DNA from: a virus
Taxonomy: Duplodnaviria > Heunggongvirae > Uroviricota > Caudoviricetes
Direction: 5' to 3' (one strand)
Length of the DNA stretch: 4,597 bases
Virus record (IMG/VR): IMGVR_UViG_2734482566_000007
Part shown: piece after piece, positions 990 through 4,597 of the stretch
Position numbering within the stretch: position 1 is the stretch's first letter
How the letters are laid out: each line of letters opens with the position of its first letter
The notes under the pieces: model-generated
The model's database searches: none
The model's input: only the letters and a program-made list of their open reading frames with translations
Told to the model about the DNA's origin: nothing
Made by a program: the position numbers and the translations under genes

Positions 990-1145
990 TTACTTCCTGG
1001 ATTCGTAGTCTACGAAGACAGCGACCTCCGTCTGGCCGGTTCGGATTCGTACCTCACAGAGGTCTTTCCTCGTTACCAGTGCCGTCACTATGACGGTTAA
1101 ACAGATGACGATCAGGGCGATTAACATCGCCTTTTGCTGCTTCAT
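990..1145 (-). CDS. hok: Hok/Gef family type I toxin, 51 aa (MKQQKAMLIALIVICLTVIVTALVTRKDLCEVRIRTGQTEVAVFVDYESRK); closest in my recollection to HokD/RelF
   Basis: ATG at 1145-1143 with AGGAG 9 nt upstream; stop TAA 992-990. Single transmembrane helix followed by the conserved RK.LCE.R....EVA..Y Hok signature. The 70-aa ORF in the track is an in-frame upstream extension and is unlikely to be the real start. Confidence 0.85.
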   Translation of the reverse strand: MKQQKAMLIALIVICLTVIVTALVTRKDLCEVRIRTGQTEVAVFVDYESRK

Positions 1146-1321
1146 AGCCTGCTTCTCCTTGCCTTTCGGCATGTAAGAGGCTAACCTACATGTGCAAAGC
1201 ATGAAATTGGCCTCAGATTAATGTTAAGCGTCTTGCCGGACGCGTAATGTTAACTGGGGCTTTTCTCTATCTGCCTTTTGGTGTTCATGCCTGAAGCAGA
1301 TAGCCTCAAGCACCCGCAGTC

Positions 1322-1372: not shown

Positions 1373-2059
1373 TCACTCCTTCTCTTCTTTACCGTAGTGG
1401 AGTTGACCAATTTTGATAAGAGGGCGTCCCTGAGATTTGCGGTGTAGATTGGTATCGCGCAGAGAATACACACAGCCACAATATTCCTGCTGATAGAATT
1501 TTTCGCGCTTGCTGATTTCAATCATACGGGACGAGCCGCCCTGCTTGCGCCAGTTATAATCCCAGTACACCATGCCCGGATAATGCGCGACGGCTCGCCG
1601 CCCACAGTCGTTAACCTGCTGCATATTTTTCCAGCGTGAAATGCCCAGTGAACTGCTGATCACACTGAAACCATTTTCAGCGGCGTACAGCGCTGTCCGC
1701 TCAAAACGCATGTCAAAACACATGGTGCAACGGATCCCTCGTTCGGGCTCCCATTCCATTCCTTTGGCTCGTTCAAACCAGTTGTCTGTGTCGTAATCAG
1801 CATCAATAAACGGCACGCCGTGTTGTTCAGCAAAGCGAATATTCTCATCCTTACGAATTAAATACTCTTTCTGAGGATGAATGTTCGGGTTGTAGAAAAA
1901 GATGGTGTAGTCGATTCCCGAGGCCTGAAGCGCCTCCATCACCTCACCGGAACATGGAGCACAGCAAGAGTGCAGTAGTAGTTTGTTTGCCCCGTTTGGG
2001 AGCTCCAATTTGGGCCGTTTGAAATCAGCAACTGTCATAAATATGTTTATTGGGGTCAT
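1373..2059 (-). CDS. queH: Epoxyqueuosine reductase QueH (DUF208 family), 228 aa (221 aa if translation starts at Met8)
   Basis: N-terminal [12 protein letters not shown] cysteine motif and C-terminal EYCGCVYS motif are characteristic of DUF208/QueH. ATG at 2059-2057, stop TGA 1375-1373. No clear Shine-Dalgarno before either candidate start. Confidence 0.75.
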
Positions 2060-3057: not shown

Positions 3058-3819
3058 CTACTTAACAACCCTCGAATGGCTAACATTCGGACGCCAGCTC
3101 TCCCAGTTAAAATTCACCCAGCGCCCGCCGTTCATGACCATGCGATCCATCACCCGCTCGCCGAGCAATGTTTTCATCACCTCATAGTTCAGGTGATGAA
3201 AACATTGCTCGGCGAGCGGGTGATGGATCGCATGGTCATGAACGGCGGGCGCTGGGTGAATTTTAACNNNNNNNNNNNNNNNNNNNNNNNNNNNNNNNNN
3301 NNNNNNNNNNNNNNNNNNNNNNNNNNNNNNNNNNNNNNNNNNNNNNNNNNNNNNNNNNNNNNNNNNNNNNNNNNNNNNNNNNNNNNNNNNNNNNNNNNNN
3401 NNNNNNNNNNNNNNNNNNNNNNNNNNNNNNNNNNNNNNNNNNNNNNNNNNNNNNNNGATAGCTGCCGCTAAGTGATTCTTCCCGGTACCAGGTTTTCCGC
3501 TGAACGCAAAATTTGTACACCCGGTCATCAGTTCATCGGCGATGGATTTCGCCTGGCTTAACGCGTATCGCTGGCCGTCGTTCTGCACCTGGTAATTCGC
3601 AAACGAGCATTTACGGTGCAACGGCTGGATGCCTGAGCGATTCAGAATTTTTTCCACCCGCAACTGGCGATTCAGGCGGTTGATCTCCTCGCTACGTTTC
3701 TGGCCTTCAGCAAGTTGCCACTCGCGCCACTCCGCTACCGTTCTGAATGGGGCGGTTACATGTGGCGGGGTCAGTCGGCGGATGCGTTCCAGAACGCCGC
3801 CTGTCGCAATATTTTTCAT
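3058..3819 (-). CDS. DnaC-like replicative helicase loader (AAA+ ATPase), coding sequence interrupted by an assembly gap and a fold-back artifact
   Basis: ATG 3819-3817. N-terminal part closely resembles E. coli DnaC / prophage YdaV-type proteins, including Walker A FSGKPGTGKNHLAAAI; genuine C-terminus ...NYEVMKTLLGERVMDRMVMNGGRWVNFNWESWRPNV... Residues between are N-masked (3268-3456) or come from an inverted duplicate (3191-3267). Confidence 0.85.
   Translation of the reverse strand: MKNIATGGVLERIRRLTPPHVTAPFRTVAEWREWQLAEGQKRSEEINRLNRQLRVEKILNRSGIQPLHRKCSFANYQVQNDGQRYALSQAKSIADELMTGCTNFAFSGKPGTGKNHLAAAIXXXXXXXXXXXXXXXXXXXXXXXXXXXXXXXXXXXXXXXXXXXXXXXXXXXXXXXXXXXXXXXVKIHPAPAVHDHAIHHPLAEQCFHHLNYEVMKTLLGERVMDRMVMNGGRWVNFNWESWRPNVSHSRVVK
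3106..3267. repeat. Perfect 77-bp inverted duplication (arms 3106-3182 and 3191-3267, 8-bp spacer) ending exactly at the N gap; probable fold-back assembly artifact
   Basis: The reverse complement of 3191-3267 is identical to 3106-3182. The left arm encodes the conserved DnaC C-terminus; the right arm gives non-homologous residues (VKIHPAPAVHDHAIHHPLAEQCFHHL) where the AAA+ core should be. Confidence 0.8.
3268..3456. other. Assembly or scaffold gap, 189 N
   Basis: Run of N. Gap plus artifact arm totals 266 nt, close to the roughly 260 nt expected for the missing DnaC-like core, so the reading frame is fortuitously preserved. Confidence 0.95.
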
Positions 3820-4174
3820 GGTCCGTTACCCCCTGAAGCCTGGCGGGATCGCACTGTCCGGCAACGAGACGGTGTTAACCTGTCGGAGCAACGTCTCAGG
3901 CCGAACACCTTTCGGCGCGAACAGGCCCTGGTATTCATTGGCGATGCTGTGTCGAATCACCTGCTCAGGTGTAAAACCCTGCTGACGGAATTTTTCCAGT
4001 TCCCGTATCGCCCCGTTAGCGCCCTGCTCCGTTCGAATCGGTTTTCGCAATGCCTGTCTGAACCGGACCCACTCATGCCAGAGTGTTTCCGGCAACCAAT
4101 CGGGCAGCTCAATAGCCTCCGGCTCGAATTTTTTAGACGCTCGTTTTTGGCGAGGGGGAGATCAGTATTTAGAT

Positions 4175-4194
4175 CTTCCTCTTCCTCTTCCTCT
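4175..4194. repeat. (CTTCCT)3 hexamer tandem repeat encoding the poly-Glu linker of the replication initiator
   Basis: Plus 4175-4192 is three exact CTTCCT units plus CT, translating on the minus strand as (GAG GAA)3. Confidence 0.8.
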
Positions 4195-4217
4195 GGTAAC
4201 GCTTTTTGATCCGTTTG

Positions 4218-4238
4218 TGTAACGCTGGCAGCGTTACC
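4218..4238. repeat. Dyad element A: TGTAACGC-TGGCA-GCGTTACC inside the initiator gene
   Basis: 8-bp arms are exact reverse complements. Near-identical to element C at 4425-4445. Confidence 0.6.
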
Positions 4239-4263
4239 TTTTCGTTTCAGTTCGCGTATTTTT

Positions 4264-4283
4264 GTTACTCGCTCGTTTGTAAC
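4264..4283. repeat. Dyad element B: GTTAC-N10-GTAAC inside the initiator gene, flanked by T-rich tracts
   Basis: Same GTAAC/GTTAC core as elements A and C, in the opposite arm order. Confidence 0.45.
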
Positions 4284-4424
4284 CGCCCGTTTTTTAGAGC
4301 TTTTTCCGTTATGACGTTCAAAGTTAGGTAGAGAAAGCCCTCCGTCATTTTCGACCAGCCATCCAACCTGAATTAACGCATCAGCAAAACCAGACATAAA
4401 AGTGATGCGATCTATTGCACTTTT

Positions 4425-4445
4425 TGTAACGCCGCGAGCGTTACA
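4425..4445. repeat. Dyad element C: TGTAACGC-CGCGA-GCGTTACA inside the initiator gene
   Basis: 8-bp arms are exact reverse complements. Shares the TGTAACGC...GCGTTAC consensus with element A about 207 bp away. Confidence 0.6.
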
Positions 4446-4597
4446 ATCTGCATTACCGTCTATCATTTGTTGATCCGCCCATGCCCAGAAGCGAATAACC
4501 TGAGGTAGCCTGAGTTTAACGGACACTCCTTCCTGAAATAGAATGGCATCAGAAGGAGCTAATAATGAGCAGAAAAACCCAACGTTACTCTAAAGAG

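Follow-up and report, generated by a model that had tools for sequence, protein, structure and literature searches.

The 4,597-nucleotide (nt) stretch of DNA analysed here (the window), from a virus of the Caudoviricetes (IMG/VR record IMGVR_UViG_2734482566_000007), carries within the remains of a phage replication initiator gene a set of dyad-symmetric GTAAC/GTTAC repeats. These repeats are probably the iterons to which the initiator itself binds and, together with the purine-rich, AT-enriched tract that adjoins the last of them, they would form a replication origin inside the initiator gene, laid out on the plan of phage lambda. What is new is the combination of this plan with an initiator that joins a predicted winged-helix domain to a DnaT-like one, with short, helically spaced half-sites, and with extra clusters of sites inside and upstream of the sequence that encodes the DNA-binding domain.

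The genes of interest lie on the minus strand, and transcription runs from high to low window coordinates; positions in the initiator gene (gene nt) are obtained as 4605 minus the window position. The dyad GTAACGC-N5-GCGTTAC, which is perfect over 19 base pairs (bp), occurs twice, at 4219-4237 and 4426-4444. The pattern GTAACGCNNNNNGCGTTAC, searched with up to two mismatches, has two matches in the window, both of them perfect, and none in 200 dinucleotide-preserving shuffles; the heptamer GCGTTAC occurs six times in the window, five of them within 4196-4444 (0.41 expected). An earlier note on this DNA had pointed to two near-identical dyads at 4218-4238 and 4425-4445, and these are real, including the flanking T/A that it described. 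The dyad that we call site 1, TGTAACGCCGCGAGCGTTACA, at 4425-4445 (gene nt 160-180), lies in the region coding for the N-terminal domain of the initiator (N-domain) and encodes a loop of the predicted winged-helix domain; the linker dyad, TGTAACGCTGGCAGCGTTAC, is found at 4218-4237, or at 4218-4238 when its final C is included (gene nt 367-387). The same note had proposed a third dyad, GTTAC-N10-GTAAC, at 4264-4283 (gene nt 322-341). Both cores are present, GTTAC at 4264-4268 and GTAAC at 4279-4283, but they are weaker; the orientation of one of them differs (T/A) between the window and Escherichia coli COL60J, and intact relatives often have GTTAC twice on the coding strand, a pattern that sequence comparison describes better as two half-sites 15 bp apart than as a fixed dyad. 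The array also reaches past the coordinates first given to it: a single terminal half-site, GCGTTACC on the coding strand (GGTAACGC on the plus strand), had been overlooked at 4195-4202 (minus strand, gene nt 403-410), where it abuts the purine tract. A degenerate half-site, GCATTACC, with one mismatch to GCGTTACC, is located at 4450-4457, 12 bp from site 1, in a 12-bp (4-codon) insertion relative to other family members; at its position GGTAACGC is present in two relatives (L003 and L004) and in many IMG/VR loci. Five half-sites are counted in 4195-4283, plus site 1 at 4425-4445. DnaA boxes were looked for and none was found. In intact copies of the gene another perfect dyad, the third, stands 13 nt ahead of the ATG; the insertion sequence IS600 has removed that stretch of DNA from the window.

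The arrangement was followed through the family in 12 annotated phage loci and about 210 IMG/VR loci, which gave 79 genes, no two of them more than 90% identical in nt, and an array was scored where at least four half-sites of one class fell between -100 and +470 of the gene. By this measure 70 of the 79 genes have an array built from one of five motifs, namely CGTTAC (36 genes), GCGGAC (21 genes), GTAGAC (6 genes), GTGAC (5 genes) and CGTAAC (2 genes), and half-site density is 12.0 per kilobase (kb) in the interval -100 to +470 against 0.53 per kb in flanks of about 3 kb. The linker cluster (gene nt ~320-420) is present in all 70 qualifying genes, the N-domain cluster accompanies it in 58, and 13 have at least two sites upstream of the ATG. 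Eight of the remaining nine genes follow the same grammar, four with motifs of their own (GTGGCGC/GCGCCAC, GTTGCGC/GCGCAAC, GCTAACGG/CCGTTAGC) and four with weaker GCGGAC and GTAAC arrays. Adjacent direct repeats are spaced by 11-12 bp (101 cases) or by 22-23 bp (32 cases), which correspond to one or two helical turns.

At least seven classes of half-site can be distinguished (for example GTAAC/GTTAC, GTCAC/GTGAC, GTAGAC/GTCTAC, GTCCGC/GCGGAC and GTGGCGC/GCGCCAC), and each of them changes in step at all sites of a genome; class membership follows the clades. A Vibrio phage has GTCAC-N9-GTGAC both at site 1 and at the linker, its Val codon having passed synonymously from GTT to GTG; a Ralstonia phage has GTAGAC-N8-GTCTAC in the same two places; and epsilon15 has two clusters, each composed of two GTCCGC and two GCGGAC. 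In relatives whose proteins are as little as about 45% identical, site 1 is still found, conserved as DNA, at its usual place in the gene. In the complete Rac-like phage vB_EcoS-673R7 (37.8 kb) the dyad, allowing two mismatches, occurs three times and all three copies are at the initiator gene, where 8 of the 12 copies of GCGTTAC are also gathered within 441 bp. The genes that flank the initiator vary among relatives (methylase, ydaT, DnaB, DnaC and others), the initiator N-domain being the sole constant.

Units of the array can be multiplied. The four-residue loop insertion (DCNA) of Rac-like proteins corresponds to one extra 12-bp half-site unit (locus L001, 5616-5660), and one metagenomic phage has the half-site unit three times in tandem, giving SNAESNAESNAD. 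In the Caudoviricetes genome MW202710 (2341-2385) the array has grown by 12-bp (4-codon) units, and the peptide repeats read SNAE SNAE SNAD. The two clusters of epsilon15 (locus L014, 2055-2106 and 2334-2374) are near-duplicates of about 45 bp in the same frame, whose peptides, VRMASALKADRLR and VRKASASEADKKR, belong to a helix of the folded domain and to the linker.

The dyads lie in coding sequence, and their conservation had to be separated from that of the peptide, a check that the earlier note had called for. Codons over site 1 were counted in 27 non-redundant genes of the GTAAC class, with the same residue elsewhere in those genes as background. Val is GTT in 27 of 27 genes (34% elsewhere), Asn is AAC in 27 of 27 (60% elsewhere), Ala is GCT in 23 of 27 (24% elsewhere) and Ser is AGC in 22 of 22 (23% elsewhere). 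The first codon of the site is xGT in all 27 genes though the residue is G, C or S, and the variable codon before Val retains GC in 25 of 27 although it encodes S, G, R, T or N. For the rest of the conserved residues in the N-domain two to six codons each are in use, the commonest at a frequency of 0.3-0.7. Wherever Leu is the residue at the column of the terminal half-site (23 genes), its codon is TTA. The linker dyad is read in two frames, as x-N-A-x-x-V-T in 17 dyads and, one base out of phase, as V-T-x-x-A-L-Q in 10, and copies of the dyad also exist in non-coding DNA upstream of the ATG. Because codons are fixed, two frames are used, non-coding copies exist, both arms co-vary, and site 1 encodes a loop that is variable in length and has a low predicted local distance difference test score (pLDDT) in the predicted structure, the sequence comparison shows that the constraint acts on the DNA and not on the peptide. 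The dyads are thus conserved apart from codon constraint, with synonymous positions fixed, two reading frames in use and sites changing in step.

The tract that follows the last half-site occupies 4151-4194 on the minus strand. Its coding strand reads AGAGGAAGAGGAAGAGGAAGA at 4174-4194 (gene nt 411-431), which is CT-only on the plus strand, and then TCTAAATACTGATC..., and it encodes the 'acidic linker' of the protein. Both this linker (4174-4194) and the T-rich stretches between the sites (A-rich on the coding strand) are present as had been reported; as DNA, the purine tract of the linker, rather than the T-rich spacers, is the likely DNA-unwinding element. Across the family, a purine run of at least 12 nt begins no more than 40 nt past the last half-site in 53 of the 70 genes, and runs of that kind in the genes number 76 for purines and 1 for pyrimidines. 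In the 45 nt past the last half-site, purines make up 77% (55% elsewhere), AT 61% (45%) and C 13% (25%), and 69 of 70 genes are richer in purines there than over the remainder of their length. Of 131 Arg codons in the tract, 123 are AGA, a codon with an 11% share elsewhere; the tract DNA AGAGAAGAGAAGAGAAGAGAAGA is used in two frames, giving REEKRRED in some genes and PEKRREEK in others. The last half-site is always directed into the tract and abuts it (...GCGTTACC/AGAG, ...CGTCTACC/AGAG, ...GCGCCACC/AGAG, ...GCGGACC/AGAG), so that the junction ...ACC/AGAG... recurs across specificity classes.

The intact initiator is a protein of 262 amino acids, aligned from end to end with phrog_2509, 'replication initiation protein' (E=4e-89), and overlapped at residues 102-236 by phrog_678, 'O-like'; a Pfam search with the intact protein gave no family at E up to 1 and no Phage_rep_O match. 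At residues 170-262 it is similar to the DnaT C-terminal domain of E. coli (2ru8_A, E=9.3e-5; 9zbt_D, E=3.2e-4), weakly but over the full-length domain. The N-domain is tentatively modelled as a winged-helix DNA-binding fold. Neither the truncated nor the intact N-domain has a Pfam or NCBIfam match, and phmmer found 7,000 relatives, counted as 50%-identity cluster representatives, at E<=0.001 and 4,427 at E<=1e-10; it represents a large unnamed winged-helix-like family, still without a model in Pfam or NCBIfam. Relatives occur in phages of Escherichia, Enterobacter, Klebsiella, Salmonella (epsilon15), Xanthomonas, Pseudomonas, Ralstonia and Vibrio, and the hosts of the phages and prophages also include Shigella; phage records label some of them 'primosomal protein I'.

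The closest parallel in layout is lambda. The rule for lambdoid phages, as a paper on Stx phages gives it, is that the origin lies in the middle of gene O and consists of iterons and an AT-rich tract, and O also binds AT-rich single strands (PMC7466680). Lambda and the element proposed here both place the origin midway along the initiator gene, where the gene codes for the linker joining a DNA-binding N-terminal domain, specific to the type, to a C-terminal domain that works with the loader; the repeats are dyad-symmetric, a purine-asymmetric, AT-enriched tract lies past the last of them, and the loader gene is directly downstream in the early operon. The lambda record annotates four ori iterons at nt 349-433 of gene O, against ~320-410 in the element studied here, with the same strand asymmetry; the iterons are followed by CACAAAAGACACTATTACAAAAGAAAAAAGAAAAGATTATT, which includes an 18-nt purine run, and past iteron 4 lambda has AAAAGAAAAAAGAAAAGA. 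Since the lambda iterons and the purine-rich AT tract hold the same place in gene O, the lambda-like origin that had been suggested for the window is supported by both layout and position. The differences are also clear. The window type has a DnaT-like C-domain and a DnaC-like loader instead of P; half-sites are of 7-8 bp, with 11-12-bp spacing and mixed orientation, whereas lambda has four iterons of 18-19 bp; extra clusters are found about 200 bp upstream, in the region coding for the DNA-binding domain and upstream of the gene; and the tract is GA-rich rather than strongly AT-rich. Homology with lambda O was considered and rejected (BLASTP E=1.3, no Phage_rep_O Pfam match).

Other known systems share parts of the arrangement. 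The origins of the iteron plasmids pPS10, F, R6K and RK2 have in common with it a winged-helix initiator (here a predicted one), short helically spaced repeats and an adjoining unwinding element, but in plasmids the rep gene itself does not contain the iterons, most of which are direct repeats of 17-22 bp. Plasmid Rep proteins also contact the single-stranded unwinding element (PMC10602881). With E. coli DnaT, the C-terminal 93 amino acids of the initiator align at DnaT residues 92-179, including the tail ...VNTVSxPDSxIPPGFRG; DnaT, however, has no sequence-specific origin-binding domain and acts in PriA-dependent restart, while here the DnaT-like domain shares its protein with a predicted winged-helix domain, and the gene that encodes it also contains the repeats.

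The Rac prophage of E. coli K-12, whose genetically defined origin is oriJ, has the same operon layout in ydaU/ydaV and a loader of the ydaV type, and the C-terminal 119 amino acids of the two initiators are 85% identical. The N-domain of K-12 YdaU is instead a DUF1376 domain, unrelated to that of the window type, and no GTWAC dyads were found in the N-terminal half of K-12 ydaU. Identity with K-12 Rac ydaU/oriJ was rejected on these grounds (only the C-domain is shared, DUF1376 is missing in the window type and K-12 has no dyads), and because the N-domains are unrelated and K-12 is without GTAAC/GTTAC dyads, the specificity of the putative window origin must differ from that of oriJ. Similarity between the two types of initiator starts directly after the purine tract; therefore the N-domain and the origin appear to form one exchangeable module, and the C-domain and the loader another. 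Lambdoid O genes show such modular exchange. In K-12 MG1655, nt 394-457 of ydaU (3513-3576 of locus L002) contain GTTCAAAC three times within 64 bp, twice in direct and once in inverted orientation, and no further copy exists in 8 kb; this cluster occupies the position equivalent to that of the linker cluster and is a candidate for the core of oriJ.

From the architecture of the sequence, the DNA-level selection, the co-variation of sites and the domain homologies we infer binding, unwinding and origin firing, which could proceed as follows. The intact element would begin some 40 nt ahead of the ATG, end at gene nt ~431 and comprise an optional upstream dyad, the cluster in the N-domain coding region, the universal linker cluster (a dyad and single half-sites at 11-12-bp helical spacing) and the last half-site, abutting the purine tract. 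The putative winged-helix N-terminal domain would bind the half-sites within its own gene, initiator molecules would coat them along one face of the duplex, and the adjoining purine/AT tract would then melt. The DnaT-like C-terminal domain, possibly on the exposed single strand, would recruit the DnaC-like loader encoded by the neighbouring gene and the host DnaB, and transcription of the early operon through the gene may assist, as it does in lambda.

Several observations weigh against an origin of this kind. No published origin mapping or experiment for this type of initiator was found in the literature searched, which does not cover the older oriJ papers and mentions YdaU and oriJ of the Rac prophage only in passing. 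The perfect dyads are about 190-210 bp apart, unlike the tight array of lambda, and those that lie apart may do something else, for example in autoregulation or copy control. The tract of the enterobacterial type, to which the window belongs, is GA-rich and only about 48% GC, and is not strongly AT-rich. Compensatory changes in the dyads are also expected of a hairpin in RNA or single-stranded DNA, and the region folds somewhat better than shuffles (z = -2.4), a value that does not discriminate between readings. The genes of the survey are phylogenetically related, and their counts are not independent events.

It is also conceivable, although we would not bet on it, that the element represents an origin design distinct from that of lambda, with multipartite sites, an array that grows in 12-bp units and a fixed junction, ...ACC/AGAGAAGAG..., at the last half-site. 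In such a design the linker cluster would loop or wrap together with the sites in the N-domain region and with those ahead of the gene, each lying some 200 bp away from the core, and firing would be controlled in this way; the 12-bp (4-codon) units of the array would add residues to the protein, and the purine strand of the melted tract would be captured at the junction by the DnaT-like C-terminal domain. The arrangement of DnaA boxes and DnaA-trios in bacterial oriC offers an analogue for the junction. If true, this would link a protein fold of primosome restart to the opening of an origin.

Among the explanations that dispense with an origin at this place, the one that fares best supposes that the initiator does bind the sites, but as operators for autoregulation or copy control (by roadblock, looping or handcuffing), and that the true origin is elsewhere. 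The wide separation of the perfect dyads, at about -31, 161 and 368 in the gene, would suit this role, as would the position of one dyad directly upstream of the ribosome-binding site in Rac-like phages, and plasmid iterons are known to double as control elements. An operator, however, has no need of a universal linker cluster abutting a purine/AT tract that is itself selected as DNA, which is an origin-like grammar; position and order agree with the lambda ori, and the complete phage contains no other cluster of motifs able to serve as origin. We consider this explanation unlikely as a substitute for an origin, and the outlying dyads may also serve autoregulation alongside the origin role.

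A role of the dyads as mRNA or single-stranded DNA hairpins, for processing, translation control or primosome assembly of a kind suited to a DnaT-like protein, is quite improbable. They would give stems of 7-8 bp with loops of 3-5 nt, from class to class one arm changes along with the other, the C-domain resembles DnaT, and the folding score given above points the same way. Yet about 100 adjacent pairs of half-sites are direct repeats at 11-12 bp, which are unable to pair with each other, the terminal half-site is single, and what stays constant, among all sites of a genome and between distant hosts, is the arm sequence itself and not just its complementarity. An Rfam scan, moreover, found no family over 4150-4500, the sok RNA at 1140-1315 being the only hit to reach its gathering score.

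The alternative raised in the earlier note, that these are operators of a different regulator, has become very hard to maintain. Dyad symmetry is typical of repressor operators, and the element does lie within an early operon under repressor control. In the complete Rac-like phage, however, the dyad is found only at the initiator gene, and neither the immunity region nor any other promoter region has it; the regulators nearby and the genes downstream vary, whereas the sites always accompany the N-domain and switch class with it.

That the repeats arose by chance, or merely accompany a repeated peptide (xNAxSVT) and do nothing as DNA, was rejected as having practically no likelihood: both window dyads do lie in the same frame and encode (C/G)NAxxVT, but no shuffle produced such a dyad, synonymous positions are fixed, bases are kept where residues vary, the linker dyad is in the other frame in 10 of 27 cases and non-coding copies exist.

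If the origin is correctly assigned to the N-domain family, origins could be annotated in thousands of phage genomes, and the dense 'dual coding' and the rare AGA codons of these genes would be accounted for. The seven or more matched specificities of initiator and site would then constitute a natural series for studying the evolution of replication specificity and the recombination of modules. The message of the window itself is modest, since it is a decayed prophage replicon of the Shigella type.

The earlier note was right in recognising an initiator gene, but the gene is not intact here. What remains is a pseudogene at 3826-4501 (minus strand), composed of the N-domain remnant and linker (~4153-4501) and of the DnaT-like C-terminal domain (3826-4095), now in a different frame. 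The end portion of an IS600 copy occupies 4502-4597 on the plus strand, with the start of its orfA (MSRKTQRYSKE...) at 4565 and 100% identity to loci annotated 'IS3-like element IS600 family transposase'. Similarity to intact initiator genes ends at 4501; the insertion point corresponds to initiator codon 35, and codons 1-34 have been lost with the upstream region, including the upstream dyad. The insertion also yields a spurious 189-residue open reading frame (3957-4526) that starts within the IS. A second lesion is a 10-bp deletion at 4152/4153, where, in the alignment with E. coli COL60J, AGGGGGATTT is missing; the deleted bases are those between two AGGGGGA repeats (a short direct repeat), and the resulting frameshift places the N-domain/origin part and the DnaT-like C-domain in separate reading frames (3957-4526 and 3826-4095). 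Because IS600 and the frameshift destroy the initiator and the upstream dyad is lost, the window copy is a relic, with its origin DNA intact from site 1 to the purine tract, and it could fire only with a related initiator supplied in trans. A similarly frameshifted initiator protein was found in another genome, and the nearest protein variants of the window initiator are partial proteins of Shigella flexneri and S. sonnei, which makes Shigella the probable source of the window. A collection with one genome per species did not contain the exact IS600 junction, and there is no record of the fused reading frame.

Directly downstream of the initiator lies a DnaC-like helicase-loader gene of the ydaV type (3058-3819, minus strand), broken by a run of N; its first 116 amino acids match NCBIfam PRK12377 (E=9e-69) and DnaC (E=7e-33), and ydaV is annotated at this position in relatives. 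The segment 3820-4501 is 97.7-98.4% identical to many E. coli chromosomes, one of which labels the gene 'phage replication initiator YdaU family protein', and the early operon of those chromosomes is Rac-like (repressor, ydaS-like, ydaT, initiator, ydaV). Intact relatives have a lambdoid early-right operon, in which repressor, cro-like and cII-like genes are followed by the initiator and the DnaC-like loader. Past the loader, further along the minus strand, the window contains a DUF977 gene, a zinc-ribbon gene, a QueH homologue, a hok/sok locus and a DUF1367 gene.

Three minor observations concern this downstream part of the window. Inside the loader gene a perfect 77-nt inverted repeat (3106-3182 / 3191-3267) adjoins the N run, which is 189 bases long (3268-3456), and the two together look like an artefact of assembly or masking, not biology. 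The toxin-antitoxin locus of the hok/sok type extends over 990-1315 (minus strand), with the sok RNA at 1140-1315 (Rfam RF01794, 117 bits) and a Hok-like open reading frame at 990-1202; in E. coli COL60J hokD is annotated at the far end of the corresponding stretch. Finally, the QueH (epoxyqueuosine reductase) homologue at 1373-2059 (minus strand) is full-length (Pfam E=2e-65) and represents prophage cargo between the replication module and hok/sok.

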